Source of the DNA: Escherichia phage UE-S1
Length of the DNA: 64,000 nucleotides
Strand: one strand, 5' to 3'
Sequence record: ON568341.1
Below the pieces are notes generated by a model. It was not told the origin of the DNA, searched no databases, and saw only the letters and a program-made list of their open reading frames with translations. The position numbers and the translations under genes are program-made. The first letter of the stretch is position 1. Each line of letters begins with the position of its first letter. Shown piece after piece: positions 3,922 to 38,577 of the stretch.

Positions 3922-3950
3922 TTGACAGTACTAACAATGTGTAGTATTAT
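3922..3950 (+). promoter_or_regulatory. sigma70-like promoter for membrane-protein array
   Basis: TTGACA(3922-3927), 17 nt spacer, TATTAT(3945-3950). Confidence 0.5.
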
Positions 3951-3966
3951 ACACTGGAGACACCTG

Positions 3967-7480: not shown

Positions 7481-8626
7481 TTATTTTTTCCAAGGAAGTA
7501 ACGAAGTTGGAATCTTGATAGGTATATTTGATGCAGCAACATCAGGAAAATTTGCATCTCCACAAACATACAAATTATCGATTTCGTCAATCAATAATGT
7601 ATAGTTGTAACTTCTACAAAAACCGCTTAAGCCTCTTCCCTCTAATGCAGATAAATTCATTTCAGTGAATTGAGTTATATATGTTTCATTTGAACCAACA
7701 CCACATTGACCATTAGCATTTATACCACAAGTAAGCAATTTATTATTGTTTTGAATTACACATGATGGTCCAGCAAGGTTCGTACCTAGTTCACCTACAA
7801 CATTAACTTCACCTTTTAATGATAAATTTTGGATCACTGTACTCATAGGGACACGCGATGTATTTCCAACACCTGCTTGTCCTGAGCCATTAGTGGATGC
7901 AACTTTAACAGTACCGTCATTAAGAAAAATATAAGATGTTTCGATGGTATTAACTGCTTGTGTAGCTGTTGTTATTGTCGTATCCTGCTTGAATTTAAGT
8001 ACATTTGTTGTTGTTGAACCAGATATAAATGTAGCACCTGCGTACCAATAGGTTCCATCTTGAAGTACTAAACCAGTACTTCTAATTGAACACCCTGCAC
8101 TGCGAACATTTTCTATATGACTATATGTAAAGGTTGATACGATTGAAGATTCACCATTACCGAACACCCCACCAGTACCTGCACCACAGAAAAACCATTT
8201 ACCGTTTTTCAAAAATACACGCATACAAGCAGAAATAACCACACTATCAATATCACTTGCAGCTACACCAAAATCGGTAAAGAAATGAGTTATATCAATC
8301 CAATTACCACCAGTATTTGATGGGAGATGGGGAATTACAACTCTAGTCCCTGTGTACCAGATTGTATCATCATCTTTAATAACAAGAGTACCTTGAACAC
8401 CACCCCAATACCTTGTTACATTTGTATTAACAAGCCTCCACTCAGTAGATGATTCAGTGGAGCCATTACCACCTTGACCATAAGATGATGAGCCGTGCCA
8501 GTATAAATTTCCATTTTTATCTAAATAAAATTTTGCATCAGCCGAACATTGCAATCTGTATTTGAATACGGTTTTTGGTGCTGGTGCAATATTTGCATAT
8601 TTTAGCATTCTACCAAAAGGTAACAT
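7481..8626 (-). CDS. RCC1-like beta-propeller protein with MLPFGRM tag (paralog 9)
   Basis: N-term MLPFGRMLKYANI; repeats such as CGINANGQCGVGSNET; AAGGAG SD. Confidence 0.7.
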   Translation of the reverse strand: MLPFGRMLKYANIAPAPKTVFKYRLQCSADAKFYLDKNGNLYWHGSSSYGQGGNGSTESSTEWRLVNTNVTRYWGGVQGTLVIKDDDTIWYTGTRVVIPHLPSNTGGNWIDITHFFTDFGVAASDIDSVVISACMRVFLKNGKWFFCGAGTGGVFGNGESSIVSTFTYSHIENVRSAGCSIRSTGLVLQDGTYWYAGATFISGSTTTNVLKFKQDTTITTATQAVNTIETSYIFLNDGTVKVASTNGSGQAGVGNTSRVPMSTVIQNLSLKGEVNVVGELGTNLAGPSCVIQNNNKLLTCGINANGQCGVGSNETYITQFTEMNLSALEGRGLSGFCRSYNYTLLIDEIDNLYVCGDANFPDVAASNIPIKIPTSLLPWKK

Positions 8627-8704
8627 AATTTTTCTCCTTCATTCATTATACTGTATTTAATCCAATTAAGAAAAGCTAGTATCAAGTACTGGCATTTAAA
8701 AGAA
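8627..8704 (-). promoter_or_regulatory. intergenic cassette: terminator hairpin + TAAATA..TATAAT promoter + SD
   Basis: minus strand reads GCCAGTACTTGATACTAGC hairpin ... TTAAATACAGTATAATGAATGAAGGAG-ATG. Confidence 0.5.
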
Positions 8705-9880
8705 TCAAATTGTCGGAAGTGGGAATTCTTTCATCACCGATGAACTGTTTGCTGCAATATTATCAGGAGATTTACCAGCGTAGTATAATTTATTATTAAT
8801 AAACATATATAGCGTTGCATCGTTCCCTGCTACAAGAGAATTACTTTTCTTAAAAATAACCCCTGGGGGTAAAATAGCTTCAACAAATGAACCTGATTCT
8901 CGTGTTGAATTGTTTGCCAATTGACCATTATTATTATAACCAGTACTATAAATTTTACCTGAACTATAATACACAAGACCACGTGTACTAATGTTTTCTA
9001 TACGAATGAATTCACTATCGTCCGGTACTGTAGTTGATAGAACTGGGTATAACTTATAAGCTGATGTTACATTATTATTACCCAATTGACCATAACCTTG
9101 AAAGCCTAGTGCATACATAGGACATGATTCTGGTGTACCTTTTGTTATAATACCAATATAATTCGAACTACAAAAAATATCCACTGCTTCTACAACATTT
9201 GTACCCTTATATTGAACCCAAGGAAATACATATGATTGTTGTTTGCCATTACCCAAAACACCGGAAGTTGTTGTACCTGTACGCCACATTGTATCATCAA
9301 GTTTAATAATCCAGTTAGCAGTTGTTATAGTTGAACAGAATTTTTTAACATTATCAACCAAGTATGTAAATTTATTATAATATGATGCAGTGTTTATTCC
9401 AAATTTAGCACCAGTATTGTCACCTAACAAATATAAACTATTATCTGTACCTAAAATCAAAACATAATCATGACCCACGTATATCTTTTTGATTTTTGAA
9501 ATACCAAATTGTGTAAAATAGCTGGTACATTCAGTGAATATTGTTACATGATTTGATGTATTATTACCTAGCCATTTATCTAAACCACTATAAAAGAACC
9601 TATCATCATTTGTGCGTATTAGACAAAAAGAATTATTTGTACTGCACCAGAAATCTTTGACATTACTATATATTTTTGTCCATTCAGTTACTTGATTAGT
9701 ATGACCTAAACCAAAAATTCCACCATTTTGTAGTCCCATAGCCCATATTGAACCATTTTTATCAAGAAGCATTGTGCATGTAAATGAATACCCACACGCT
9801 GGAGTAACTAATTTAACAAAATTGGGAATATATGGTAAAACTTTATTCCCATAATTCACCATTCTTCCAAAAGGTAACAT
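8705..9880 (-). CDS. RCC1-like beta-propeller protein with MLPFGRM tag (paralog 8)
   Basis: N-term MLPFGRMVNYGNK; STGYNNNGQLANN, LGFQGYGQLGNNN repeats. Confidence 0.7.
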   Translation of the reverse strand: MLPFGRMVNYGNKVLPYIPNFVKLVTPACGYSFTCTMLLDKNGSIWAMGLQNGGIFGLGHTNQVTEWTKIYSNVKDFWCSTNNSFCLIRTNDDRFFYSGLDKWLGNNTSNHVTIFTECTSYFTQFGISKIKKIYVGHDYVLILGTDNSLYLLGDNTGAKFGINTASYYNKFTYLVDNVKKFCSTITTANWIIKLDDTMWRTGTTTSGVLGNGKQQSYVFPWVQYKGTNVVEAVDIFCSSNYIGIITKGTPESCPMYALGFQGYGQLGNNNVTSAYKLYPVLSTTVPDDSEFIRIENISTRGLVYYSSGKIYSTGYNNNGQLANNSTRESGSFVEAILPPGVIFKKSNSLVAGNDATLYMFINNKLYYAGKSPDNIAANSSSVMKEFPLPTI

Positions 9881-9953
9881 ATTCTCTCCTTATTCATTAT
9901 AATATATATTTAATACAAATAATAATGCCAGTACTCAAATACTGGCATTATTA
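9881..9953 (-). promoter_or_regulatory. intergenic cassette: terminator hairpin + promoter + SD
   Basis: GCCAGTATTTGAGTACTGGC hairpin; GTATTAAATATATATTATAATGAATAAGGAG. Confidence 0.5.
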
Positions 9954-11144
9954 TTACAATTGTCTAGGTGTATCCAGAACATATCTATTTGTGCTAGGAC
10001 CGCCATCATCATAAGTTCCGGTTGAATATATATTTTTCATATCAGCAGTTAGAAATGTACGATACGAACCTCTATATATTTTTATTTTATCATACATATT
10101 ATATGTAATTTGTGCTGGCATTGGACATATAGTAAATCTTCCAATAGTCCCCACTGAACCTACCCCCAATGAGCCAGCATAACTACTCGCATTTAAACCA
10201 GTTGCATATACACCAGAACTCGTAACTAGTATACTAGATTGTGATGGGTATCCAGTATGAATTGAATACAAAGTTCCAGGTGGTAATGTCGTACTATTTC
10301 TCCCTAATACAGCAAGTGCCGAACTGGATGTGGTATTATTACCCCATGCACCATTACTTGCTAAACCACCAACTAGGAACTGACGTACACCCGTACTTGG
10401 ATTTTCCACCAAAGCACTGACTGAACCCATTGAGCATCCAGTGTATTGTAACGTTTTTGTGTATGTTGTACTTGGCTGATATAAAGTATATTCATTATAT
10501 AAAGTCCATGTAGTACTGGAACTTATACCGGATGTACCACCACCAATATATAAATTATTTTGTTTATCAAACAACATTACACAGTTATTTGTTGACATTA
10601 TTTGTGCAATATCAACATTAGGTGTTACTGCTTTTACAAATGAACCATCTGTTATTTGTTGAGTTTTTCCAGTACCATCAGCGAATTGTCTAGCCCCACT
10701 CCAACCAGTACTCCATATTGTATTATTATCCATTAAGAAAGTAAACCACGTAGTACCTGCATACATCTGTTTAATTGAAGTACTTGAACTTTGTTTGTAC
10801 AAATTTTCAATATATTGGTTATAACTTAAAAATGATGTAGTACTGGTTGGTAAACCAATATGACTACCAAATCCACAATAGAAATAATTTAAGTCATTAT
10901 CTTGAACTAACAAAGTTCCTTGTGTGATCCAGCAATCATTAACGTTTTCTCTAATTAATGTCCATGTTCTTAATGCAGTGTTGTTTCCTCTCCCAAACTG
11001 CCCAAAACTATTATTACCTCGTGCATATAGTTGACCATCAGTATAAAGTACAACAACATCAGTATCGGTTGTTAGTATTTTCTTAATTTGAAGTGGGATA
11101 GGTACAATATTCCCGTACTTAACCATTCTTGCAAAAGGTAACAT
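9954..11144 (-). CDS. RCC1-like beta-propeller protein with MLPFGRM tag (paralog 7)
   Basis: N-term MLPFARMVKYGNI; ARGNNSFGQFGRGNNT repeat. Confidence 0.7.
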   Translation of the reverse strand: MLPFARMVKYGNIVPIPLQIKKILTTDTDVVVLYTDGQLYARGNNSFGQFGRGNNTALRTWTLIRENVNDCWITQGTLLVQDNDLNYFYCGFGSHIGLPTSTTSFLSYNQYIENLYKQSSSTSIKQMYAGTTWFTFLMDNNTIWSTGWSGARQFADGTGKTQQITDGSFVKAVTPNVDIAQIMSTNNCVMLFDKQNNLYIGGGTSGISSSTTWTLYNEYTLYQPSTTYTKTLQYTGCSMGSVSALVENPSTGVRQFLVGGLASNGAWGNNTTSSSALAVLGRNSTTLPPGTLYSIHTGYPSQSSILVTSSGVYATGLNASSYAGSLGVGSVGTIGRFTICPMPAQITYNMYDKIKIYRGSYRTFLTADMKNIYSTGTYDDGGPSTNRYVLDTPRQL

Positions 11145-11215
11145 ATTTTCCTCCTTTATTCATTATACTATATTTAATCAAAAAGAAAAGCCAGTATCAA
11201 GTACTGGCCTATATT
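11145..11215 (-). promoter_or_regulatory. intergenic cassette: terminator hairpin + promoter + SD
   Basis: GCCAGTACTTGATACTGGC hairpin; GATTAAATATAGTATAATGAATAAAGGAGG. Confidence 0.5.
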
Positions 11216-11953
11216 TTAGACTGAATTGTTAGGATAATATCTCCCCCTTCCCCATATTATTCGCACAGCACCACCACCAGCAGCCGTATAAGAAGAATTA
11301 TCCCATATACTACCACCACCACCATACCTCTTACCAGCACCACCACTACCAGCACCACCATTATATGAACCACCGTAGCTACCACCAATACCATTAGCAC
11401 CTTGAACAATGATACCAGTACCACCACCCGTACCAATGAACGAGGTACTATAGAATGTACCACCCCCACCGCCGCCACCAGCACCATTTTCACCAGTGAT
11501 TGCATCTCCGTTACCACCTTTACCAGTGTAGCCACCAGCACCACCACCAATGACTGCACCACCACTTACACCAGTGTTGCCACCATTACCACCACCATCA
11601 TTAATAGCGTTAGCAGCTTTTCCACCTAGTCCACCAACCGTATATGCACCAGTGAAGCTAACACATAGTTTTTCAGTTCCACGATATAAACCGTTTTCAA
11701 CTGCTGTAGTAGTGTTGGGATGTGTAAGAGAAACACTTAAGTACTCACCACCAGAAACCGGAATATTATTACGCCACGATAAGCCGCCACCAGCACCACG
11801 TTGACCACCCGGCGAAATAACACATACTGATATTTCGGTAACGCCAGCAGGAACTGTAAATTGTGTTGTTCCTATTGTCGTGATTAATTGTTCACCATGT
11901 GGCTTATATTCAATTTTATTCCCGAACTTAACCATTCTTCCAAAAGGTAACAT
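11216..11953 (-). CDS. glycine-rich protein with MLPFGRM tag (paralog 6, non-propeller)
   Basis: N-term MLPFGRMVKFGNK; long GGxGG runs (..GGGNGGNTGVSGG..GAGGGGGGG..). Confidence 0.65.
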   Translation of the reverse strand: MLPFGRMVKFGNKIEYKPHGEQLITTIGTTQFTVPAGVTEISVCVISPGGQRGAGGGLSWRNNIPVSGGEYLSVSLTHPNTTTAVENGLYRGTEKLCVSFTGAYTVGGLGGKAANAINDGGGNGGNTGVSGGAVIGGGAGGYTGKGGNGDAITGENGAGGGGGGGTFYSTSFIGTGGGTGIIVQGANGIGGSYGGSYNGGAGSGGAGKRYGGGGSIWDNSSYTAAGGGAVRIIWGRGRYYPNNSV

Positions 11954-12024
11954 AATTCCCTCCTTTATTTGTTATACTATATTTAATACAAAAAGAAAAG
12001 CCAGTACTCAGTACTGGCATAATG
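11954..12024 (-). promoter_or_regulatory. intergenic cassette: terminator hairpin + promoter + SD
   Basis: GCCAGTACTGAGTACTGGC hairpin; GTATTAAATATAGTATAACAAATAAAGGAGGG. Confidence 0.5.
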
Positions 12025-13167
12025 TCAATAAGTATCCCAAGGTAATGGTGTCTTCCTAAATCCATACCTGGTTGTGCTCGCACCATCACCAGCAATGTAT
12101 CTACCTATACCACATTGGTATAACTCTGTACTACTACATATAGCACCACCTATAGTACCACTACTCCACTGAATTATATTAGAATATGTTATTGGTAAAT
12201 CACTACATTTAGTATATACAGCAACGGTAGAAGCACCACTAATACCACCAAACATACTTCGCTTAGCACCAGTGTAATATATACCATCTGGACTCATAAA
12301 TGCAGAGGTGTAAGTTGTACTGCAATCCACTGGACTTCTTATTGTATTAAGATCGCCTGGATATGTTCTGACACCAAAGGTGTATACATTACCATCAGTT
12401 GTAATACCATTACCTAACTGCCCACTGTTTTGTCCACCACATGTAAGCAACGATGCAGAACCAGAAACAATTGCAGTAGCATTATACGAAGTGCCCATTG
12501 CAATAGAAGCACCAGACAATAGTTTTGGAGTAACAATAGCTGTTGTATTACCCTGGCCTAATTCACCATTTGTGTTTCGTCCCCATGCGTATATGGAAGT
12601 AGTATCCAACCTACATAGTACTGAACCATAACTAAACGTATATCGCATGTCAATTACCGCAGAAGGCAAATTAACCTTAGTTGCAACACTAATAACACCA
12701 CCAGTAACACCACTGTTTGCGTTCATGTTACGACCATATGCATATAAAGAACCATCTGAAGTTTTAATATGCATCATACCATCTGTACAATATAATGCAT
12801 CTATACTCTCCACCGCAACCGGACCCATACTGGTAGTTATATCGGTCCACCCAAGAGTAGTAGTACTAGAAATTAAGTTATTTCCTGCGTATAGTATTCT
12901 ATTATTATTAGTAACTACAACTGTATATCTGGCAGTAACACCAATTAATCGAACATCAGTATATATCTTAGACCACGCACCTAATGAATTGGTGTTTGCA
13001 TCCAAAAAGCCCAACTGCCCATCTGTATTGTATCCAATGCCCCATACATCACCTGCACTGTCCAATAACACTTCATGTGAAAATCCAATCTTAAAATCTT
13101 TTATTGTAGGAACTACCGGATCTGGTGCAATATTCCCGTACTTAACCATTCTAGTAAAAGGTAACAT
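12025..13167 (-). CDS. RCC1-like beta-propeller protein with MLPFGRM tag (paralog 5)
   Basis: N-term MLPFTRMVKYGNI; WGIGYNTDGQLGF, WGRNTNGELGQGN, CGGQNSGQLGNG repeats. Confidence 0.7.
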   Translation of the reverse strand: MLPFTRMVKYGNIAPDPVVPTIKDFKIGFSHEVLLDSAGDVWGIGYNTDGQLGFLDANTNSLGAWSKIYTDVRLIGVTARYTVVVTNNNRILYAGNNLISSTTTLGWTDITTSMGPVAVESIDALYCTDGMMHIKTSDGSLYAYGRNMNANSGVTGGVISVATKVNLPSAVIDMRYTFSYGSVLCRLDTTSIYAWGRNTNGELGQGNTTAIVTPKLLSGASIAMGTSYNATAIVSGSASLLTCGGQNSGQLGNGITTDGNVYTFGVRTYPGDLNTIRSPVDCSTTYTSAFMSPDGIYYTGAKRSMFGGISGASTVAVYTKCSDLPITYSNIIQWSSGTIGGAICSSTELYQCGIGRYIAGDGASTTRYGFRKTPLPWDTY

Positions 13168-13240
13168 AATTCCCTCCCTTATTCATTATAATATATTTAA
13201 TACAAAAAAGAAAAGCCAGTACTTGAGTACTGGCATTATG
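13168..13240 (-). promoter_or_regulatory. intergenic cassette: terminator hairpin + promoter + SD
   Basis: GCCAGTACTTGAGTACTGGC(13215-13234); GTATTAAATATATTATAATGAATAAGGGAGG. Confidence 0.5.
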
Positions 13241-14350
13241 TTATTTTGGTAAATCAATTTTAGTAAAGACTGCAACATCCTCGCTTGCCCCAGGAATGGC
13301 GTAATACGATCCAGTACTATATACATCTCCGTCTTTGGTTAATATTGATGTTAAACCATCACTAAAAAGAACATCCCTAATCTCACTAACTTCAACGGGT
13401 AATTGTAAATTAGTAGCACTATATATTGCACCAGTTTGAGAATTGTTTAATCCCAAACCACGGTTCGCCCCAACACCCTTCTGATATGTACTAGTAATTA
13501 TCATTTGTGTAGCAGTATTTAAGGCAGGTGAATTCGTCATAAACAACGGAGAACTATTAGGCAAAGTACTTGCAGGAACTGCACGAAATGAAGTTGTATC
13601 TGAACTAAGAAAGTTTGGCGTTTGACCACATACGAAATATGATGTACCATTATAGTAATTAAATGCATTACCACCAATGACTGCATCGATTACACCAGAG
13701 CTACGTAATCCCCACGTGTTAATTTGTGTTCGGTTCCCCGTGCCATGCTGACCCCTGTCATTCCACCCAGAACTATATAACTTATTATCTAATGTAATAT
13801 ACATACTGTCATTTGCATTCGTCATTACTTTACGCACATTAGTAGCACATTGAGTTAATGTGTAAATTGATGATGAACCAATACCTAAAGCACCACGATA
13901 TCCATTAGCTCCTGCACCATAGAGTACTGAACTAGTGCTAAGTACAAATATTAAACCATACGAACATACAATATTAGCAATTTCACTCACTGGTATAGCA
14001 CTGGTAAACCAATTAGTTCTTTCAACTAATACTGTGCTGTAAGAAGTAGTTGTAGACGATGTGAACCAATATGTTTCCCCTGATGTCCATATAGTATTAT
14101 CATTTTTAATAATAACAAGTGCACGATCACCTACGAAAAAATTAGAAACATCTGCACTTACTAATATCCATGAAGATACCGTGTTTTTATTACCATTTCC
14201 AGATTCACCACCTTGATTTCTACCTATGTAATATAAATCATGTGAATCAGTTAATAAGAATTGACCCTGTGTAGATGCACCAACTTTAATTATATTTTTA
14301 GGACCAGGTACAATATTCCCATAATCAAACATTCTTACAAAAGGTAACAT
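13241..14350 (-). CDS. RCC1-like beta-propeller protein with MLPFGRM tag (paralog 4)
   Basis: Start set at conserved MLPFVRMFDYGNI (track ORF extends 5 codons upstream); SSGWNDRGQHGTGN repeat. Confidence 0.65.
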   Translation of the reverse strand: MLPFVRMFDYGNIVPGPKNIIKVGASTQGQFLLTDSHDLYYIGRNQGGESGNGNKNTVSSWILVSADVSNFFVGDRALVIIKNDNTIWTSGETYWFTSSTTTSYSTVLVERTNWFTSAIPVSEIANIVCSYGLIFVLSTSSVLYGAGANGYRGALGIGSSSIYTLTQCATNVRKVMTNANDSMYITLDNKLYSSGWNDRGQHGTGNRTQINTWGLRSSGVIDAVIGGNAFNYYNGTSYFVCGQTPNFLSSDTTSFRAVPASTLPNSSPLFMTNSPALNTATQMIITSTYQKGVGANRGLGLNNSQTGAIYSATNLQLPVEVSEIRDVLFSDGLTSILTKDGDVYSTGSYYAIPGASEDVAVFTKIDLPK

Positions 14351-14425
14351 AACTAAAATCTCCATATAATAATTATAATGTATTTACAAAAAAATACCAG
14401 CACATATTTCAGTACTGGTATAATG
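14351..14425 (-). promoter_or_regulatory. intergenic cassette: terminator hairpin + promoter + SD
   Basis: CCAGTACTGAAATATGTGCTGG hairpin; TGTAAATACATTATAAT...GGAG. Confidence 0.45.
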
Positions 14426-15607
14426 TTATGGTAAAATAATAGCTTGTAACGAACTCATACCCAATGTTGGAACACTCGCCTGTGGTGCTGGAGAATTCAA
14501 TTTTGGTGATGAAACCGCATATGACATTCCTGAACCCAAATCTGGATCAAAAACTACAGCACAATAATTCCCACTATATATAAGTCCATTCTTGTATCCT
14601 TGTGCACTTTGAATGCATTTCGTGAACGTACCAATATCTGTAGTGGCATTTATTAAGTTCCTCCCACGATAACCGCAGGTGTATATGAAATTATCATCGC
14701 CTATGTACATACTAGAATCCCCAGAAGAACTACATAGATACGACATATAAGCACGCATGTTTTTAGGAGCAACTGACAATGTACCTGCATAGAATTTATT
14801 ATTCGAACCCGTAATATTACCATCACCCAATGCACCAAAACTTCCCCAGCCAGTACCGTAATATCTCTTATCACTCAAAAATATAATACAGTTGTTATTA
14901 CACATCTTGATTTGATATATCAATGAAGGATCAATCCCAGGGAATGATTCAGTGAATGTTAGAACAGCCGGATCAGTACTAGCATTACATTGATGATATG
15001 TATTAGTACCAGCGGACAAGATTGTTCCATTAGCTAACAGAATTCTCGCAGTACCAGTACCAGCAGTACAAGCAACTGCACTTCCTGCACTTCCGGTGTA
15101 TATTTGTCTGAAAGTAAAGAAACCAACAGTTTTACTTCCCTGCCCACTCCAACCAGTATTATCAACTCCACACGCCCATACTGAACCATCTTGCATGATC
15201 ATCATTACACCAAAGCGTTCTATTGAAATATAAACAATCTTCGTTGTATCAACTGCACTAAATCTAGAAGTTATATCAGTCCATACCTTAACACTTACCG
15301 CCGTCGCACTGGAAGTAGGATCTTCACCAGCTATCATTATCCTCCCATTGTTAGTAAGATACATTGTCTGACTATAACCAGTACTACAAAACTTAACACT
15401 ATCAGTCTCTGGAACTTTTAACCACTCGTTGTAACGTGTTACGTTAGTGTTATTACCTAACTGATAATAGTTATTCATCCCAGATACATATAACACACCA
15501 TCCTTTATTAAACTATAAGTCGCACTATAGTCACTACAGGTATAACGTGTACCCACAGGTGGCTCAACGACGTTCCCGTACTTAACCATTCTCCCAAAAG
15601 GTAACAT
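14426..15607 (-). CDS. RCC1-like beta-propeller protein with MLPFGRM tag (paralog 3)
   Basis: N-term MLPFGRMVKYGNV; TGWGSFGALGDGN, MNNYYQLGNN repeats. Confidence 0.7.
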   Translation of the reverse strand: MLPFGRMVKYGNVVEPPVGTRYTCSDYSATYSLIKDGVLYVSGMNNYYQLGNNTNVTRYNEWLKVPETDSVKFCSTGYSQTMYLTNNGRIMIAGEDPTSSATAVSVKVWTDITSRFSAVDTTKIVYISIERFGVMMIMQDGSVWACGVDNTGWSGQGSKTVGFFTFRQIYTGSAGSAVACTAGTGTARILLANGTILSAGTNTYHQCNASTDPAVLTFTESFPGIDPSLIYQIKMCNNNCIIFLSDKRYYGTGWGSFGALGDGNITGSNNKFYAGTLSVAPKNMRAYMSYLCSSSGDSSMYIGDDNFIYTCGYRGRNLINATTDIGTFTKCIQSAQGYKNGLIYSGNYCAVVFDPDLGSGMSYAVSSPKLNSPAPQASVPTLGMSSLQAIILP

Positions 15608-15680
15608 AATAAAATCTCCGTAATTAAATTATATAGTATTTACAAAAAATACCAGTACATATTTCAGTACTGACCTATTA
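15608..15680 (-). promoter_or_regulatory. intergenic cassette: terminator hairpin + promoter + SD
   Basis: CAGTACTGAAATATGTACTGG hairpin; TGTAAATACTATATAAT...GGAG. Confidence 0.45.
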
Positions 15681-16802
15681 TTAAAAGGGCAACGGTAACT
15701 CAGTAAAAGTACTTACGTCCGGTAAACCATACATTAAATTAGCATCACCACAGTAATACCACTTCGTAGAATCATGTACCACCGATAAACGCTGTGCACA
15801 TAACACTTCCTGTATGTCATTAAACACCATCGGGACTAACTCATATGTATCTGCAAATGAAGATTCACTACCACTCGCATGAAAAGTATTTGTCCCAGCA
15901 TAAAATAACTGATTAGTGTTCTTACCCACAGCAAATGTTATCAAAACCCCATCATTCTCCCATAAAGAAGAAAACTTATCAACACTACCAGAAAGCTCTG
16001 TGTAAGTACTCGTAATGGCACTCGCCGCCGCCGCATTACCCATCTGTTTATTCAAGTTCTGTCCAGCAATAAAATATCTCGTTCGTGCACTAGAATCAGT
16101 ATATAATAACCCAGTGTTCGTAGTCATCATTCCAATGTCCTTAATCGTCATATCAGTCTGTGAATAACTTAGATACGAAGTTAAATTAACATTATTACCC
16201 AACGAACCGTTAGAACTCATGCCACAACGATGTAATATACCACTTGTATCAACGTAGATAGTACTAACTAAACTCGTATACAACTCTTGTACATTATTCG
16301 CAATAAACACAGCAGTCGCCTTATTACTAACCCCACCAAATGATAGGTTATTATCAAATCCCTTAGCGTATAATTGATTATTAGTAGTCAATAATCCAAT
16401 CGTGTAATAAGACATTTTCATATCCCTTACTGTACTCAAATCTACTGCCCCAAATTGATACGTAACATCTGTCCATTTGAAAATCTGTGCACTACCAACA
16501 CCACCCGTTTCAAACCATTTGTCACCACAGTACAATATGCGATTATCCTTAGTAAAGATAACTGTTAACAATCCACTACCACACGCAAACTTTACATCAC
16601 TTCTAACCTTCGTCCAATCAAGTACATAGGTAGTGGTGTTATTACCTATACCTAACTTGCCATAACGGTTATAACCACGCACCCATAAATCACCACTCTT
16701 AGTAATTAATAGTAATGCGTCTCCTGTACTTATTATTCGAAATCCCGAACTAGGATCAGGGGCAATATTCCCGTACTTAACCATTCTCCCAAAAGGTAAC
16801 AT
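15681..16802 (-). CDS. RCC1-like beta-propeller protein with MLPFGRM tag (paralog 2)
   Basis: N-term MLPFGRMVKYGNI; YNRYGKLGIGNNT, MSSNGSLGNN repeats. Confidence 0.7.
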   Translation of the reverse strand: MLPFGRMVKYGNIAPDPSSGFRIISTGDALLLITKSGDLWVRGYNRYGKLGIGNNTTTYVLDWTKVRSDVKFACGSGLLTVIFTKDNRILYCGDKWFETGGVGSAQIFKWTDVTYQFGAVDLSTVRDMKMSYYTIGLLTTNNQLYAKGFDNNLSFGGVSNKATAVFIANNVQELYTSLVSTIYVDTSGILHRCGMSSNGSLGNNVNLTSYLSYSQTDMTIKDIGMMTTNTGLLYTDSSARTRYFIAGQNLNKQMGNAAAASAITSTYTELSGSVDKFSSLWENDGVLITFAVGKNTNQLFYAGTNTFHASGSESSFADTYELVPMVFNDIQEVLCAQRLSVVHDSTKWYYCGDANLMYGLPDVSTFTELPLPF

Positions 16803-16875
16803 ATTTTCCTCCTTTATTCATTATACTATATTTAATACAAAAAGAAATGCCAGTATCAAGTACTGGCATATTAAT
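16803..16875 (-). promoter_or_regulatory. intergenic cassette: terminator hairpin + promoter + SD
   Basis: GCCAGTACTTGATACTGGC hairpin; GTATTAAATATAGTATAATGAATAAAGGAGG. Confidence 0.5.
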
Positions 16876-18024
16876 TCATTGTATAAATGACATATCTACT
16901 TCTGTATAATTAAGAACGTTCTGTCCAGAAATACCACCCATTACTACTATTGCAAGGCCACAATAATATAATTTTCCAGTATCCGTAAGTATAAGTGATC
17001 CAGATGGACTGCGTACCAAATCACACGAACTATTAAAAGAAGTATAAGAAGGAGTATAGGAGTACTGATTATTATTATTACCAACACCTAATTGCCCAAA
17101 CCCATTCGATCCAGAAGCATATAGAACTTCATCTGCTTTGACAATATGTGATGCCATGTTACCAACACAAGTATATAGAGTATAAACTCCTGAACTCAAT
17201 AATGTCGGAGTTTTATATTGTATATCTGTAGATGTAGAAGTACCACCTGTACCAAATTCGTTCCCATATTGTGCACCGAACTGTTTGCCACAAGCGTACA
17301 AATTATTATCCGATTTGATAAAAAATGTACTCTGATAACTTACATTAAAATCTATAACATCCGAAGAAATCATCGTCACCCCAGTAATAGAAGTTTGATT
17401 ACCCGTGCCCAACTGGTAGTAATAGTTAAAACCACAACCCCATAAAGTATTATCTTCTCGCAAATAAATGTTACCAACTGCCTTTTTAACCGAAGTTATA
17501 GTATCTACTCTTTTGAATGTGTTAAAAGAATTAATGTTTGTACCATCACCAAATGATGATATGTTCGATATATTGTTAACTCCACAACAATACAATGTAC
17601 CATCTTTTGTTATCAAATTCACCTTCATATCATAAAAACTACTCATGTATTTTATATCAGAAACATTAACACCACTTGATGTTATCCACGTAGTACAGTC
17701 CGTCCACAAAGTTTTTCTATCAGTTACACCAGTGAATGCCTTCGTGTTACCAGTGATAAAAACTTTTCCAGTACCTTTCTCTTCATACAATTGACAATCA
17801 CTACTGTTATCTTCCAATAGAACTCGTTTAACATTCTCCGCACAAAGAATAAATTTACTCGATGCTACACCTGTACCAGTACCCCAATTCGTCGCAGAAG
17901 ATGCATACAACTTATCAGTATAAGTATCATGAAGATACATAGAATCACTGGAATATATTTTAAAACGCCCTTCTTTCTCAGGTATAATATTCCCGTACTT
18001 AACCATTCTCCCAAAAGGTAACAT
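16876..18024 (-). CDS. RCC1-like beta-propeller protein with MLPFGRM tag (paralog 1)
   Basis: N-term MLPFGRMVKYGNI; GSNGFGQLGVGNNN, FNYYYQLGTGNQT repeats. Confidence 0.7.
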   Translation of the reverse strand: MLPFGRMVKYGNIIPEKEGRFKIYSSDSMYLHDTYTDKLYASSATNWGTGTGVASSKFILCAENVKRVLLEDNSSDCQLYEEKGTGKVFITGNTKAFTGVTDRKTLWTDCTTWITSSGVNVSDIKYMSSFYDMKVNLITKDGTLYCCGVNNISNISSFGDGTNINSFNTFKRVDTITSVKKAVGNIYLREDNTLWGCGFNYYYQLGTGNQTSITGVTMISSDVIDFNVSYQSTFFIKSDNNLYACGKQFGAQYGNEFGTGGTSTSTDIQYKTPTLLSSGVYTLYTCVGNMASHIVKADEVLYASGSNGFGQLGVGNNNNQYSYTPSYTSFNSSCDLVRSPSGSLILTDTGKLYYCGLAIVVMGGISGQNVLNYTEVDMSFIQ

Positions 18025-18065: not shown

Positions 18066-18094
18066 CTTGACACCCTTTCAGTACTGTTGTACAA
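18066..18094 (+). promoter_or_regulatory. sigma70-like promoter (divergent from array)
   Basis: TTGACA(18066-18071), 17 nt spacer, TACAAT(18089-18094). Confidence 0.5.
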
Positions 18095-18120
18095 TAGAAG
18101 GAATATTAGGAGAACTACAT

Positions 18121-18348
18121 ATGACAAATACCCTTAAGTACTACCTCAATACTCTGCCCGACCTAGAGTACGGGAAGTTTCTCGCAGATAGTTCGTGGCT
18201 GATTGAGCTAAAAAAATATAATAGTCCCGGATGCACCCTTATGATGAACAATGCAATTGATACCCTTATAGTGAGTATTTTACATAGCAACATCTACGGG
18301 GATAACAATAAACAATTAACAAAAATCTTAGTACTGCTATCTCTATGA
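18121..18348 (+). CDS. small protein, MNNHKEYY...LLIYRY-type family (75 aa)
   Basis: ATG 18121 with AGGAG SD; C-term hydrophobic ..TKILVLLSL. Confidence 0.5.
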   Translation: MTNTLKYYLNTLPDLEYGKFLADSSWLIELKKYNSPGCTLMMNNAIDTLIVSILHSNIYGDNNKQLTKILVLLSL

Positions 18349-18557
18349 ACACTATGAGCACTGAACAGTTCTACATCAATGCACTACCAACTAAAAGTCT
18401 TCAAGAAAGCTTACTGTATACACAAAAGAATTTTAAAAACTTCAAACGTTGCCCTAAACTACTGAACTCGTACAGGAATAATATTATAAGAAATGTTTTA
18501 CAAGGAGAAGAAAGTATGCAATACTATCACATCCTTATACTTATATTGGAGTACTAA
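18345..18557 (+). CDS. small protein, tandem family
   Basis: ATGA overlap with previous gene; C-term ..YYHILILILEY. Confidence 0.5.
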   Translation: MNTMSTEQFYINALPTKSLQESLLYTQKNFKNFKRCPKLLNSYRNNIIRNVLQGEESMQYYHILILILEY

Positions 18558-18558
18558 T

Positions 18559-18768
18559 ATGAATACTGAACATAAAGAATTCTACACCAAATACCTCAGT
18601 AACGAAGAACAATTGTTTCTAAGAAGTGTATCACCGGTAAGTACCAATACTCAATTCGGTAGAGATTGCTTTAATAATTGTATACGTAGTACCCTAGAAG
18701 CAATCGAATATAATAACAAAAATATTATGTACTCAGGTTTAATAGGACTAATATTCTTCTATGAATAA
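18559..18768 (+). CDS. small protein, tandem family
   Basis: TAATATG junction; MNTEHKEFYTKYL..; C-term LIGLIFFYE. Confidence 0.5.
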   Translation: MNTEHKEFYTKYLSNEEQLFLRSVSPVSTNTQFGRDCFNNCIRSTLEAIEYNNKNIMYSGLIGLIFFYE

Positions 18769-18955
18769 TCATAAAGATTTCTATGGTAGTAAACTACACA
18801 AACATGAACAGCTATCATTCTCTTTAGCACCACCTATGAGAAAGGATAATCTATATTATAATTACGATTTCAGGATGGCGACACGTTATGCAATAGAACA
18901 TCAGTTCCCTGAAACTAAGTACCGCTCTATCCTGAACCTCATCTTTAAGTTCTAA
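18761..18955 (+). CDS. small protein, tandem family
   Basis: MNNHKDFY N-terminus; overlaps previous stop. Confidence 0.5.
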   Translation: MNNHKDFYGSKLHKHEQLSFSLAPPMRKDNLYYNYDFRMATRYAIEHQFPETKYRSILNLIFKF

Positions 18956-19002
18956 AAACAGCACCAGGGTCCGAGTACTTTAACATAGTAAGGCTAATTA
19001 CA

Positions 19003-19188
19003 ATGAATCATATACGCTACTATTACCAACAACTATCCGACAGGGACAAGTACAGCCACAATTCCCATGTATGGTACTACAAACGCGGCAGTATAAGAGA
19101 CAAACAACATTACTTCTGTATTTCTATTAAAGAAGCACTAACAACTAAGTACACGTACAGAGCAGTACTTAAACTAATCTCTATCTAA
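19003..19188 (+). CDS. small protein (61 aa)
   Basis: ORF in tightly packed array; MNHIRYYYQQL. Confidence 0.45.
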   Translation: MNHIRYYYQQLSDRDKYSHNSHVWYYKRGSIRDKQHYFCISIKEALTTKYTYRAVLKLISI

Positions 19189-19196
19189 GGAATACT

Positions 19197-19376
19197 ATGC
19201 AAGAATTCTATATAGAACATATAACCATAAAAGACCGTTTCATGTACCACACCTTCGTGAAATACTACAAACTGGGAACAAAAAGTACTAAAAATATTAA
19301 TCTCAATAGCTGCATTCATTCTGCACTAACAAAAGATAATCCCTTCAGGGAAATCCTCGCACTAGCATCTGTATAA
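19197..19376 (+). CDS. small protein (59 aa), tandem family
   Basis: AAGGAA SD; MQEFYIEHI..; not in ORF track (under 60 aa). Confidence 0.4.
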   Translation: MQEFYIEHITIKDRFMYHTFVKYYKLGTKSTKNINLNSCIHSALTKDNPFREILALASV

Positions 19377-19386
19377 AGGAAACCAA

Positions 19387-20046
19387 ATGAAACTTAATGC
19401 ACACAGCAAACAATACCTTAAGCACTTTAAGTACCTCAACAGTATTCAAGCAGAATCTTTTACACCAGCATATACGTATCACCCTAATGTACTAAAGAAA
19501 CGAAATAAAAAGAAAAAATCCAGAAATGTTCTCGTATCTAAGAACCTCAAATCGTACTTGAAGAAAAATAATATAGCTCTTGCTTTTATTAATATCTATA
19601 ATACTGATTTAAAAGTATTGAGTACTAATACCAGCACAAAAGCACTAAAGAATGCATCTATCTATATACACATGGATAATATCCCGTGCACTATAATTCT
19701 ATCTTCCGGGAATGTATACTTCTTCGGGAATTGTAATAGCACCCATGATATCAGTACTGCACAATTCCAAATCGGAGATATGTACTGCATGGGTTCAGAA
19801 AAAATACACGATAATATGCACTTCTTCCAAAAGCAACGTACTAACGAAACTGATACAGTACTGCAATTCCTCAAAGAACTAGAACACAAAGAATTATCCG
19901 AGGAAGAAGAATTCATGTACAGTACTGTAATCGATAATCCAGGACTCTATAAAAACGCGTACAAACTAACAAAACATGTACAGGAACTTATCAGTACTGA
20001 TAAGAAAATTCATCACCTCATTACGTATATTTCAAACTATGTATAA
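19387..20046 (+). CDS. hypothetical protein (219 aa)
   Basis: AAGGAAA SD; long ORF inside the small-protein array. Confidence 0.5.
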   Translation: MKLNAHSKQYLKHFKYLNSIQAESFTPAYTYHPNVLKKRNKKKKSRNVLVSKNLKSYLKKNNIALAFINIYNTDLKVLSTNTSTKALKNASIYIHMDNIPCTIILSSGNVYFFGNCNSTHDISTAQFQIGDMYCMGSEKIHDNMHFFQKQRTNETDTVLQFLKELEHKELSEEEEFMYSTVIDNPGLYKNAYKLTKHVQELISTDKKIHHLITYISNYV

Positions 20047-20221
20047 AGAATACTACATAGAGAAACTCCCAATGCATCTACAACACCATATACCAAACGT
20101 TGCATTGGGCATAACCGAGCACGCAAAGATAATGTTCCAACAATGTACTAAGTACACGCTCATATACGATGATAATCCATATATGCTGTACTACGTAGTA
20201 ATGCTAACATTCAGGTACTAA
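20039..20221 (+). CDS. small protein, tandem family
   Basis: MYKEYYIEKLPMHLQ..; C-term YYVVMLTFRY; overlaps previous stop. Confidence 0.5.
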   Translation: MYKEYYIEKLPMHLQHHIPNVALGITEHAKIMFQQCTKYTLIYDDNPYMLYYVVMLTFRY

Positions 20222-20222
20222 T

Positions 20223-20402
20223 ATGAATACTTATAAAGAATTCTACCTCTCGTACCTTAATTCCGATATAGTAACATCCAATACATTCAGTACTAAAATT
20301 ATCTATAATGAAGTAATGAAAGAATGTATTAAAGGTGCTATTAACCCTAAAGATACGTATGACTTGTACTATGCAGTACTAACCCTTGTTTTCACGAAAT
20401 AA
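20223..20402 (+). CDS. small protein (59 aa), tandem family
   Basis: TAATATG junction; MNTYKEFYLSYL..YAVLTLVFTK. Confidence 0.4.
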   Translation: MNTYKEFYLSYLNSDIVTSNTFSTKIIYNEVMKECIKGAINPKDTYDLYYAVLTLVFTK

Positions 20403-20410
20403 CACATAAT

Positions 20411-20602
20411 ATGAATAACCACAAAGAATACTACATAGAGAAACTCCCAATGTATCTCCAACACCTTCTACCAACAGAACCATTGCGTATAGAAAAAAAC
20501 TACGAAAAAGACTACTTCATTCAGTGCACTAAATCCTCGATATATATTGAAGACTATAATCGAGTACTGTATCACATCCTTTTACTAATATATAAGTACT
20601 AA
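20411..20602 (+). CDS. small protein, tandem family
   Basis: MNNHKEYYIEKLPMYLQ..YHILLLIYKY. Confidence 0.55.
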   Translation: MNNHKEYYIEKLPMYLQHLLPTEPLRIEKNYEKDYFIQCTKSSIYIEDYNRVLYHILLLIYKY

Positions 20603-20603
20603 T

Positions 20604-20792
20604 ATGAATAACCACAAAGAATACTACACACAATTTCTCCCCAGCATTTTGGAACAATACGCCAGATATAAAGTCCCCCTCGATAACGATTTGGCAGTAC
20701 TGGGATTCAATAACTGCATAGAACGAAGTATAGAAAATAGTAATAGCTATGAACAATTATATAACACTATCCTACTTATATTCAGGTACTAA
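20604..20792 (+). CDS. small protein, tandem family
   Basis: TAATATG junction; MNNHKEYYTQFL..YNTILLIFRY. Confidence 0.55.
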   Translation: MNNHKEYYTQFLPSILEQYARYKVPLDNDLAVLGFNNCIERSIENSNSYEQLYNTILLIFRY

Positions 20793-20793
20793 T

Positions 20794-20982
20794 ATGTATA
20801 AAGAATACTACGCAAAATATTTCCCAATGTATCTCAGAACTAATCTATTAGATAAACCTCGCGATATCAATGCACAAAACGATAAAGTGTACTTTATTAT
20901 GTGCACTAAAGCATGTATACTAGATCATGACAGCTACCATCGAGTACTGTATCATACACTGTACCTAGCTTTCGTATACTAA
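20794..20982 (+). CDS. small protein, tandem family
   Basis: TAATATG junction; MYKEYYAKYFPMYL..YHTLYLAFVY. Confidence 0.5.
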   Translation: MYKEYYAKYFPMYLRTNLLDKPRDINAQNDKVYFIMCTKACILDHDSYHRVLYHTLYLAFVY

Positions 20983-21017
20983 AATGTACTCCGGTTTAAT
21001 AGGACTAATATTCTTCT

Positions 21018-21197
21018 ATGAATAATCATAAAGATTTCTACATAAGCCATCTGGATATAAACTCCCAAATGCTTATACTACTAAACACAATAGATTTCAA
21101 GGATAAGAAAAAGATCCAACAATTCATTGACCATACGGACCGTGCTGTGAACCAAAATTATATGTACTACATTCTCGCCCTAATATACAGGTACTAA
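21018..21197 (+). CDS. small protein (59 aa), tandem family
   Basis: MNNHKDFYISHL..YYILALIYRY. Confidence 0.45.
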   Translation: MNNHKDFYISHLDINSQMLILLNTIDFKDKKKIQQFIDHTDRAVNQNYMYYILALIYRY

Positions 21198-21198
21198 T

Positions 21199-21384
21199 AT
21201 GCATAGAGAATACTATATACAATTTGTTAAAGAAAACTACAAACACGCCGTCCCCGTAAACCCTTTAAATTCTAATGACCCAAGTACTATATTCTTGTTC
21301 CATGACGCAATACGTACAGTACTCAATACTAAAGATGAACAAGTGCAGTACGTATTCTTACTTTTACTTATATACAGACACTAA
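21199..21384 (+). CDS. small protein, tandem family
   Basis: TAATATG junction; MHREYYIQF..FLLLLIYRH. Confidence 0.5.
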   Translation: MHREYYIQFVKENYKHAVPVNPLNSNDPSTIFLFHDAIRTVLNTKDEQVQYVFLLLLIYRH

Positions 21385-21397
21385 AGCACTAACTAAT

Positions 21398-21598
21398 ATG
21401 AATAAAGAATATAAAGACTTCTATATAAGTAAACTAAAAGAAAATGAACAAGCATGGATTCAACCACTAATAATACTTCCATTTAATAGATATTCATTGA
21501 ACCGATGTACCGAGATTGCTATAGACCCTTGTCCTATTAAAGAGAATGTACAATACAATCAGTACTACTATATCTTAATGCTTATATATAGGAAGTAA
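21398..21598 (+). CDS. small protein, tandem family
   Basis: ATG 21398 (TAATATG-type context); MNKEYKDFYISKL..YYILMLIYRK. Confidence 0.5.
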   Translation: MNKEYKDFYISKLKENEQAWIQPLIILPFNRYSLNRCTEIAIDPCPIKENVQYNQYYYILMLIYRK

Positions 21599-22700
21599 TT
21601 AAACACATATAGACAGGGGAAGCTCCGTAGTGGAAGCATTATACAGGCTTTAACATATGTTGCATATGTTAAAATTCAGCCTGGACAAATGCGATCACTA
21701 GGATTCTCCCCAGGCTAAACCCCGTAACTCTACAGAGAAGCCAATAGCTTCTCTTTGTCATAGGTAGTCATAAGTAATCATATATAAACATTTAAGTAAT
21801 CATTCATACGCACGGTAGTGATTAGTATTGAGTACTAGAGTACAGGAATGTTCACGTTTAATCAAGAACGTAGCAGTACTGCCCCAAAAGTATTCAGTAC
21901 TGAAGGTGTCGATATCCCACTAAGTAGGCAGAGGAAGTCTGCCGTACTTTGTAGTTTCCAAGCTCCTTTTCCATTTTTCAAATTACATCAAATGTATTCA
22001 AAAGTAATCACGTAATGATTAGTACTGAATTATTACTTTCACCTTAATTCCAAATACTCTTTTACCCTTCGGGGAAAATCCCATTACCCCTTGAGGCTCC
22101 AGCAAAAAGTTGGAAAGTACTCCATCGTAAATCTGGATCGTAAAAATTTTGGAGTACCTATGAAATAAAAGTTGGATCTTCGAAAGTTGAAATTTACGTT
22201 GGGACATATAGGATTGATGGGATATAATGAGTTTTGTAGAGATACAGATTATACGATTTCAGTACTGAATAATGAAAGAAAGCTATTGACTTTATGATTC
22301 AGTACTGTATAATGTTCTATATAGAGAGATGAGTTGCCGCAAACAATTCATTCACTCTACCTCCTGTCGTGAGACAGTACAGAAAAGATAGTTCCTCCTA
22401 TGGGTGGTACATCTTTTTATAACCTCTTTTTTCGTAATATAAACAGTACTGATATTAACAGAATGGTGTCAGTACTGATTTTAATCTAATACAATACACC
22501 CACCAGCTTGTGCTGGTGGATTATCCACTAACAGTATTCAGTACTACATGATAGTCTTCATCCTCCTAGGGTAACATAGTGAGGGCTATTGTGGGAGTAC
22601 TGAATACTCCTTTCACAAGATAGATCTATGGTATAGTACTGACGGATTTTGGGCGTAGTAAGCCTAGGTTAAATTTAGACGTAGAGATGTCTAGACCTCC

Positions 22701-22830
22701 AGATGGTTGGAAGTAAAGATGGCTATCCCTCTAGGCGGCTGGATGGCTAGATTTCTAGATGGCTGTACTGCTAGACGTTTGGACGGCTAAACGGCTAGAT
22801 GGTTACACGTCTGGAAGTATAGACGGCTAA
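22701..22830. repeat. iteron-like direct repeats (AGAYGGCT / AGATGGTT), CTAG-rich
   Basis: About 8 copies in 130 bp: agatggtt, agatggct, ggatggctag, agatggct, gacggcta, acggctagatggtt, gacggcta. Confidence 0.6.
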
Positions 22831-23452
22831 ATCAAAATTTTTATTCTGTTTTTTCCAATAGTTCCCCTACCGCGTGAGGATGTTTTTCCCCGCAGTATCT
22901 GGTGTTAGATTTTTCTGAATCTGGAATCATTATCTAATAAACTGGGGGCAATGTCAACGGCCTGGATGAATATTTTTAAAAAATAATCTAGTACTAAATT
23001 TTGGGCGTAACTATGCACCCGGTGGGCTTGAGTCTTTCTCGACTTGATGAAATAATTATATCAGTACTGGAAAAATAAAGCAATACCATGGAAGCAAAAA
23101 AGTTTTAATTAATTTGCTTGCTATCCTGGGCCGGACTATGGTACTATATTTCAGTACTGAGAAAGTGCGTTTACCTGCTAGGGTGCGGGAGTGTATCCTT
23201 TTTTTATATCTTGAATTTTGGGCGTAATTCCGCACCCTCTGGGGTTTCCGCTTTCTCGCGTCTATGTAGTAATTATACGCTTTTTTAGTACTGAGTCAAT
23301 AGCCAAAAACAAAATAATTGAAAATAATTTAACGCGTTTAAACGGCCTGTAAAGCCCTGAAATGATTAGAATGGTGCAAATGTATAGCTTAGGTGTATTA
23401 ATGCGTTAGAATGCGTCTGAGGCCGTTTTACGTGGTATAGGGATGATTTAGT

Positions 23453-23547
23453 GGATTGATTCAGTACTGAATAATAGTACTCCTATATAGAAAGATAGTT
23501 CCCCTGGATTGATTCAGTACTGAATAATAGTACTCCTATATAGAAAG
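23453..23547. repeat. tandem direct repeat (2 x 42 bp, 53-bp period)
   Basis: GGATTGATTCAGTACTGAATAATAGTACTCCTATATAGAAAGA at 23453 and 23506. Confidence 0.7.
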
Positions 23548-23579
23548 AAAACTATTTTAAAAGTATTTGTAGAAAGTAC

Positions 23580-23607
23580 TTGCACAGTACTGAAAAAAGC
23601 GTATAAT
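23580..23607 (+). promoter_or_regulatory. early sigma70-type promoter
   Basis: TTGCAC, 16 nt spacer, TATAAT(23602-23607); GTTTTACATC start region then 5' hairpin. Confidence 0.55.
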
Positions 23608-23661
23608 GTTTTACATCGAGAGCGGGAACACTTCCCTACTCACTTTTAAGAGATTAAAACG

Positions 23662-24065: not shown

Positions 24066-24116
24066 GTTTTACATCAGGTGGGGAATAGTTCCCCACTATA
24101 TAAGAGGATTAAAAAA

Positions 24117-32258: not shown

Positions 32259-32358
32259 TATTAAAAAATAGTTTGACAATAGATTATAGTACTGTATAAT
32301 AGTTTACATCAAGAAACGGGAAGTAACAGTACTTCCCTACTAACAGAGAGAAAACAAA

Positions 32359-35644: not shown

Positions 35645-35731
35645 GTATTGACAAAGTATCTTAGTACTGTATAATAGTTTACATCAAGCGAGGGGAATGG
35701 TTCCCCTCCTAACAAAGAGAGAGAAATAAAA

Positions 35732-38496: not shown

Positions 38497-38577
38497 GTAT
38501 TGACAAAGTATATCAGTACTGTATAATAGTTTACATCAAGGGGAGAATGGTTCTCCCCACTAAAAGGAAACAAAATT

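Follow-up and report, generated by a model that had tools for sequence, protein, structure and literature searches.

Between positions 18121 and 21598 of a 64-kb stretch of Escherichia phage UE-S1 DNA (record ON568341.1; the whole stretch is called the window below, and positions count from its first letter), the plus strand carries 14 back-to-back genes of 59-75 codons, delimited by the list of open reading frames (ORFs), a stop-to-stop scan and explicit extraction. We are confident that this array represents a genuine multigene family, under selection and specific to its lineage, of small soluble helical proteins, and comparison with related genomes demonstrates that whole gene cassettes in it are gained, lost or fused into chimeras. 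On balance, we lean towards a reading whereby the array is a polycistronic multigene family that is expressed early and encodes diversified small binding proteins, which would act in host takeover or counter-defence and would be remodelled at the gene junctions. Tandem paralog families are a known feature of jumbo phages. Sequences of the present family have already been deposited, as hypothetical proteins, and are grouped in PHROG 11711; a literature search found no paper describing this array.

We compared all six-frame ORFs of the window with a custom family profile built from 69 family sequences, and exactly 14 matches were obtained (E from 4e-13 to 8e-26), with no further match on either strand. 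This result bears out a preliminary description of the region as about 14 tandem paralogs of some 60 residues, for which alignment and profile searches had been proposed as a check: the paralogy is significant and all 14 genes were matched. The PHROG 11711 profile (unknown function) recognises 10 of the 14 at E<=0.01, the best match (6.8e-27) extending over the full profile length, and the four most divergent members (A, B, E, F or similar; subfamily letters as in Table 1) lie outside that model and are joined by the custom profile only. The genes are spread over all three reading frames, and every ORF is intact with a start and a stop. The N-terminal motif attributed to most of them takes the form K-[ED]-[YF]-Y within the first nine residues of 10 members, and an aromatic-Tyr pair is present in all 14, with Tyr8 and Leu59 invariant; the hydrophobic C-terminal helices end in FRY, YRY, YKY, YRH, YRK, FKF, FVY and similar sequences, just as had been noticed. 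Other parts of the description need adjustment. Exact TAATATG junctions, said to join the genes, occur at five boundaries (that of members 2 and 3 among them), and the other boundaries are three stop/start overlaps of 4 or 8 nt (ATGA, where the start of member 2 overlaps the stop of member 1, ATGAATAA and ATGTATAA) and six spacers of 8-47 nt. Three members have 59 residues and fall below the 60-residue cutoff of the ORF list, as stated; four more, which begin at 18559, 20039, 20794 and 21398, are in that list, only as longer ORFs of 77-107 residues, and their likely starts are internal ATGs directly after the preceding stop. Finally, the row is interrupted by one unrelated 219-codon gene (19387-20046, plus strand; hhalign probability of a relation 0.4%).

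The array could in principle be no set of genes but a degenerate repeat in the DNA, such as an array for protein binding or recombination, with ORFs that arise by chance; the parts conserved in DNA are indeed the junctions of about 50 nt, and many or all of these ORFs are unannotated in several GenBank records. We consider this explanation effectively refuted. Tandem Repeats Finder detected no array of gene-sized period, and the only repeats at the DNA level are segments of about 50-60 nt across the stop/start junctions, with 60-73% identity. Paralogs share 19-48% of their amino acids, and their nucleotide identity drops from 0.57 at the 5' end to 0.37 in the middle, with 0.48 at the 3' end; the middle of the unit nevertheless retains the helix-forming core residues. 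In 40 pairs of window genes and orthologs, the pooled ratio of nonsynonymous to synonymous change (dN/dS) was 0.30 in the proposed frame versus 1.26 and 1.15 in the shifted frames, so that synonymous change is in excess specifically in the proposed frame. In addition, all 14 ORFs are intact across three different frames, and the family profile yields a confident structure prediction. Because the frame is conserved and the junction-free DNA is as diverged as the proteins, the objection raised beforehand, that the motif might recur as a nucleotide repeat without a conserved reading frame, fails. A parsimony count in the orthogroups of 12 genomes placed omega at about 0.21 for conserved core positions and about 0.45 elsewhere.

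Table 1. Genes of the small-gene array, expression signals and deletion or recombination scars in the window
Feature	Position	Strand	Description
Sigma70-type promoter (predicted)	18067-18095	+	TTGACA-17 nt-TACAAT, 11/12 consensus positions; CAGTACTG palindrome in spacer
Shine-Dalgarno site	18108-18114	+	TAGGAGA, 6 nt upstream of member 1 ATG
Member 1	18121-18348	+	Subfamily A, 75 aa; HMM E=4.5e-15; dN/dS 0.21-0.49
Member 2	18345-18557	+	Subfamily B, 70 aa; HMM E=1.8e-15
Member 3	18559-18768	+	Subfamily C, 69 aa; HMM E=7.7e-24; dN/dS 0.06-0.18
Member 4	18761-18955	+	Subfamily D, 64 aa; HMM E=2.5e-17; 8-nt overlap with member 3
Deletion scar	18962-19002	+	Final ~40 nt of an R-type gene of the family, located between D and E
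Member 5	19003-19188	+	Subfamily E, 61 aa; HMM E=4e-15; dN/dS 0.08-0.31
Member 6	19197-19376	+	Subfamily F, 59 aa; HMM E=1.9e-19
Member 7	20039-20221	+	Subfamily G, 60 aa; HMM E=1.6e-19; 8-nt overlap with 219-aa gene
Member 8	20223-20402	+	Subfamily H, 59 aa; HMM E=4.2e-13
Member 9	20411-20602	+	Subfamily I, 63 aa; HMM E=7.6e-26; member chosen for structure model
Member 10	20604-20792	+	Subfamily J, 62 aa; HMM E=7e-17
Member 11	20794-20982	+	Subfamily K, 62 aa; HMM E=9.1e-16; dN/dS 0.33-0.74
Recombination scar	20984-21040	+	57-nt, 98%-identical copy of C/D junction 18727-18783
Member 12	21018-21197	+	Subfamily L, 59 aa, chimeric; HMM E=1.3e-15
Member 13	21199-21384	+	Subfamily M, 61 aa; HMM E=7.9e-24; dN/dS 0.06-0.43
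Member 14	21398-21598	+	Subfamily N, 66 aa; HMM E=7.9e-15

The family is confined to the Asteriusvirus lineage. A profile search of 5.8 billion proteins returned 58 clusters and an exhaustive HMMER scan of 1.84 billion representatives returned 31, all matches of both searches being 41-90 residues long; of 50,697 phage records, 35 contain the family by tblastn, each of them from a phage of Escherichia or Salmonella, and those among the 35 that were fetched are all Asteriusvirus by classification or have the identical architecture. The window itself belongs to an Asteriusvirus jumbo coliphage of the PBECO4/121Q group, and its array region and surroundings resemble phages of this genus (PBECO4, 121Q, phAPEC6, SP27 and others) with 82-94% identity by megablast; no near-identical record was found over 12 kb, the closest being fEgEco12 with 92.5% identity over 96%. 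Orthologous arrays occupy the same genomic position in 121Q, phAPEC6, SP27, WPEC5, G17 and others, and 121Q gp249-265 and phAPEC6 gp540c-548c are included in PHROG 11711. Two metagenomic contigs share the layout of a minus-strand array of RCC1-like genes, the small-gene array with an embedded gene of about 220 residues, an ORF-poor stretch of about 2 kb and conserved small genes. Annotation of the region is uneven: the record of phage UB annotates the 219-residue gene alone and none of about 19 small members, the records of PBECO4, SP27, Sharanji and slurp01 are also inconsistent, and in several the tblastn matches lie on unannotated DNA. Since many GenBank records omit some or all of the array genes, comparative gene counts for this region are unreliable in the genus. 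Scans of all 14 members against Pfam, NCBIfam and PADLOC gave nothing beyond noise, and PADLOC revealed no relation to defence-system components. A search of PDB sequences with the family profile matched only a de novo designed helical-repeat protein (8g8i, E=3.4e-5), which we judged a compositional artefact, as no stretch of it passes alone.

An AlphaFold2 model of member 9, computed from the 69-sequence family alignment, reached a pLDDT of 89.7 and a pTM of 0.75, with helices at residues 3-10, 14-17, 30-45 and 49-62; the family is thus predicted with high confidence to fold as a compact small helical bundle. Alpha-solenoid repeat units of the HEAT/ARM/TOG/VHS type are among the closest known systems, and the bundle itself gave no informative structural match. 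Column entropies over 123 non-redundant members single out Y7, Y8, L12, F36, C39, I/T40, L/I44, Y/L53, I56, L57, L59 and I60 as conserved, and segment 13-35 and most other columns are highly variable, a pattern that fits a conserved hydrophobic core with a variable surface. The members have isoelectric points from 5.1 to 9.7, and tyrosine makes up 10.9% of their residues. Small phage membrane proteins of about 60 residues are common, and the C-terminus of the present proteins is strikingly hydrophobic (VLYHILLLIY, YVFLLLLIY), as would be expected of small membrane-active or membrane-anchored factors that use this tail in lysis timing, superinfection exclusion or a holin-like role. The properties of the tail make such a role very improbable: uncharged hydrophobic runs do not exceed 6-13 residues across the members, no member has a hydrophobic segment of transmembrane length (the best 19-residue Kyte-Doolittle window is 1.18, against a usual threshold of 1.6), the N-termini are polar with no evident signal peptide, and AlphaFold packs the C-terminal helix in the core of the bundle with a pLDDT above 90.

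We then turn to the turnover of the array, for which cassette maps of 12 genomes were drawn. There are 13-22 family copies per genome, and clustering at 65% identity divides the members of these genomes into 51 subfamilies. Anchors in the order A B C D E ... F [219-aa gene] ... J K L M ... N are found in the nine closest relatives examined, in which a backbone of about 11-12 subfamilies keeps its order, and cassettes are gained, lost or moved between the anchors. Member 1 is of the widespread kind, with orthologs of 75-89% identity in nine of 11 relatives, and an N-type member closes the array in 11 of the 12 genomes, the divergent JNE01 being the one that has none; member 8 represents an accessory subfamily with clear orthologs (93-100% identity) in only three of the 11. 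The window's combination of 14 cassettes and two scars is found in none of the 11 other genomes. At the first scar, pairwise alignment indicates that the window misses the first ~170 nt of a gene that is intact between D and E in phAPEC6 (gp547c). The second has left 34 nt from the 3' end of a C-type gene (20984-21017) and has provided member 12 with a D-type 5' end; in a four-way junction alignment the first eight codons of this gene are D-like and its body is L-type, and it shares just 42-65% identity with the L orthologs of nine of the 10 relatives having one. Members 7 and 9 have a 69-nt 5' segment in common (84% identity). Among paralogs, synonymous-codon identity is 0.65 at the N end versus 0.51 expected and 0.47 at the C end versus 0.35 expected, with 0.45 versus 0.44 in the middle; the rise at the gene ends fits recombination or gene conversion at the junctions, and translation-initiation constraints could contribute. 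Our model is that recombination between the conserved gene junctions of about 50 nt would drive cassette turnover. In JNE01, three downstream flanking genes are 95-100% identical to those of the window, in contrast to 20-59% for array members and 39% for the embedded gene, which marks the array as a hypervariable island between conserved flanks.

Such freedom might also be expected if the array were largely neutral filler, tandem duplicates without important function that are tolerated by a large headful-packaging capsid. The number of copies ranges freely from 13 to 22, the loss of whole cassettes has no apparent cost, deleted members have left scars, and Hua et al. have put forward tandem duplication as one way in which jumbo genomes expand (PMC5646251). 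We find this explanation improbable, because purifying selection operates in each orthogroup (dN/dS 0.30; core 0.21) and the paralogs, although ancient, all retain intact ORFs and a conserved core; furthermore, the backbone subfamilies keep one order and both the promoter and the Shine-Dalgarno site ahead of the array are conserved.

The promoter upstream of member 1 is predicted from a consensus match in silico, and a host sigma70-type early promoter in this place is what early host-takeover or anti-defence small phage proteins would have. Its -35, its -10 and the core of its spacer are retained in eight related loci, two of which have a different first gene, and the GGAGA of the Shine-Dalgarno site is invariant in the same alignment. 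About 15 near-consensus promoters of the same class are found in the window, heading the dense small-ORF region at 22-43 kb, and many of them carry CAGTACTG in the spacer. We presume that the promoter at 18067-18095 is the early promoter of the whole array, in which no terminator-like site was detected. The conserved promoter, the absence of an internal terminator and the contrast with the neighbouring RCC1-like genes together suggest a single early polycistronic transcript, and the array is probably an early operon driven by host RNA polymerase, with the block transcribed as one unit by the sigma70 holoenzyme of the host. The downstream genes would be translated largely by coupling across the stop/start overlaps and TAAnATG junctions. 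In several junctions, the penultimate Arg, Lys or Glu codon of the upstream gene (AGG, AAG or GAG) may double as a weak Shine-Dalgarno sequence; in ends of the form ...AGG TAC TAA T ATG, the AGG/GAG codon sits 7 nt before the next ATG.

The RCC1-like genes form an array of beta-propeller paralogs on the minus strand (7481-18024), with eight full-length copies of about 380 residues and a 245-residue ORF (11216-11953). The identity of their best hits in relatives swings between about 25% and more than 90%, so this array is also reshuffled between phages. The small proteins might serve the adjoining, divergently transcribed paralogs, for example as dedicated chaperones, adaptors or assembly partners, the two arrays forming one co-varying structural or morphogenetic module: both are hypervariable multigene families, they adjoin across one common intergenic region in every relative examined, and the RCC1-like gp549 and gp551 are virion components in phAPEC6 (PMC7247149). 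Against such a partnership, the small-gene array has one full sigma70 promoter, whereas each RCC1-like gene has its own -35-less motif TATAATGAATAA, an AGGAGG site and an upstream hairpin terminator, and the differing promoter types suggest different temporal classes. Nor are copy numbers matched, with nine RCC1-like ORFs versus 14 genes here and 11 versus 18 in phAPEC6. Mass spectrometry of the phAPEC6 virion identified 62 proteins, including one of 4.7 kDa and none of gp540c-gp548c (PMC7247149), a negative result from one relative on which the virion-absence test rests. We therefore think a partnership with the RCC1-like proteins improbable as well.

The early multigene family that we favour can be compared with two kinds of known system. 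Large lytic phages have host-takeover or 'monkey-wrench' clusters of small early genes, such as the SPO1 gp37-60 module and the early small ORFs of T4. The array is likened to these clusters in being a dense same-strand block behind a strong host-type promoter, with proteins of fewer than 100 residues that are presumably non-structural, lineage-restricted and without database homologs, and by this analogy its timing would be early and its targets would lie in the host; unlike the mostly unrelated genes of SPO1 and T4, its members are all paralogs of one fold. The multigene families of poxviruses and African swine fever virus (ASFV) are viral multigene families or 'genomic accordions'. Families of this type show at least three adjacent same-strand paralogs, polymorphism of copy number or content in close relatives and traces of unequal or illegitimate recombination; the array has 14 paralogs in 3.5 kb, all on the plus strand, differs in content among the 12 genomes, carries a C/D-junction copy at K/L and an R-type remnant, and likewise lies as a hypervariable island between conserved flanks. 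In experimental accordions the copies are recent, near-identical and raise dosage, whereas the paralogs here are ancient and individually conserved, and the array looks like a diversified repertoire rather than a dosage effect.

By analogy with these systems, we propose that the proteins may be soluble, non-virion, surface-diversified binders, each with a different host or host-defence target and with roles that would lie in taking over the host, in counter-defence or in host range; on this view the array would form a standing repertoire, like the viral multigene families that expand and contract under host pressure. The proposal is based on protein size, promoter class, apparent absence from the virion and the core/surface conservation pattern, together with presence/absence polymorphism and the precedent of T-even phages, in which anti-defence loci undergo segmental amplification (tifA, PMC9391042; SegB-driven, PMC13096335). 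That the proteins bind host or defence components through diversified surfaces, in a repertoire reshuffled by recombination, is a tentative idea whose chances fall somewhat short of even. Several points weigh against the favoured reading as a whole. The coding status of the 14 members rests on sequence evidence, and the case for the promoter and its timing is built on agreement with a consensus and on analogy with the temporal classes of T4-type phages; a literature search found no Asteriusvirus transcriptome. The members at 18345, 20039, 20411 and 21398 have no recognisable Shine-Dalgarno site, so that their efficient translation is assumed to occur via coupling. The pairs behind the pooled dN/dS are not phylogenetically independent, although the frame asymmetry is clear all the same. 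In addition, positive selection at surface positions within orthogroups is unsupported: purifying selection still acts on the variable positions (omega about 0.45), which argues against a simple arms-race model, since that model predicts ongoing positive selection.

The gene embedded in the array matches PHROG 29152 (unknown function; E=5e-114), and no Pfam match to it exceeds the cutoff. Wherever annotation or gene calls permit a check, the gene is syntenic in the relatives examined, and its 23 homologs all belong to the same lineage. Its C-terminal helices look family-like by eye, a resemblance that is statistically unsupported, and an AlphaFold model (pLDDT 38) was unusable as a clue to function.

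A second tandem array on the same strand of the window invites comparison. It comprises 27 adjacent paralogs of 64-90 residues at 41872-49151, with an invariant G-T-N-Y-Q-E-like motif and an outlier copy at 60711-60902, and belongs to PHROG 4148 (unknown function). The two arrays are alike in their helix-rich proteins of similar size and in a short N-x-x-E-Y-Y-like motif, but no homology was detectable between the families (hhalign probability 4.6%), and whereas the GTNYQE paralogs link by BLASTP, only three of the 14 small-gene members do. As an in-frame 'GTN-M-x-KEYY' read-through resembles 'GTNYQEYY', we tested the small-gene family as a circular permutation of GTNYQE; across 13 circular permutations the hhalign probability did not exceed 11.2%, and the idea was rejected. 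All-against-all BLASTP revealed further paralogs, namely five adjacent genes of about 150 residues (56637-58934), a four-member set split over 55543-56627 and 62051-63100, and a pair at 3937-4646; this genome is unusually rich in tandem duplicates. An 85-nt tRNA-Cys (anticodon ACA) called by ARAGORN at 58070-58154 lies within a 162-residue ORF of the five-gene group (58022-58510) and is probably a false positive.

The palindromic 8-mer CAGTACTG is present in 68 copies in the window versus 0.87 expected (at most four in 100 shuffles), for example at 42, 18079, 22300 and 38514; eleven copies fall in 21874-23592 and four inside the 219-residue gene. Many copies abut the -10 of near-consensus sigma70-type promoters in the arrangement TTGACA-N9/10-CAGTACTG-TATAAT, and the related sequences CCAGTACT...AGTACTGG form the terminator hairpin stems between RCC1-like genes. 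The 8-mer could serve a phage regulator as its operator or have a structural role in the DNA. Several strong sigma70-type promoters have, about 10 nt downstream of the -10, a GC-rich hairpin of the form GGGGAgaatggtTCTCCCC (24066-24105, 32301-32340, 35676-35715, 38528-38567 and 40050-40089), which suggests a conserved 5'-leader structure of early transcripts.

Directly after the array lies a stretch of about 2 kb (21600-23660, of interest especially at 22676-22830) with no ORF of at least 90 residues, which is an annotation gap in phAPEC6 too. It contains about 19 head-to-tail degenerate 8-mers (consensus TAGAYGGC), all on the plus strand and at distances divisible by 8. Also present are a direct repeat of 44 nt whose copies match perfectly (23452-23495 and 23505-23548) and a pair of 64-nt repeats (at 22997 and 23214), and two strong promoters, at 22286 (plus) and 23299 (minus), have no sizeable ORF behind them. 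The minimum of cumulative GC skew in the window is at about 22 kb, and Rfam detected no RNA family anywhere in the window. The stretch is a candidate for an origin of replication, a region of iterons or a locus of non-coding RNA.

In the strongest form of the binder proposal, one helical scaffold of about 60 residues would bear many surfaces and the array would be a shuffled modular counter-defence library, each cassette neutralising a different strain-specific host defence or host factor and the junctions acting as built-in recombination sites; co-infecting Asteriusviruses would exchange, delete and duplicate cassettes at the stop/start junctions of about 50 nt. We regard this extension as speculative and unlikely in full, but if true the phage would encode a counter-defence library comparable to those multigene families that large DNA viruses of eukaryotes carry. 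Because the array is among the most variable islands between near-identical genomes, it may plausibly determine host range or the evasion of defences. Jumbo phages from the group of PBECO4 and 121Q have repeatedly been isolated as candidates for therapy and biocontrol, with more than 80% of their genes lacking a known function, and the 51 natural variants of a 60-residue scaffold offer a compact test bed for host-target screening.

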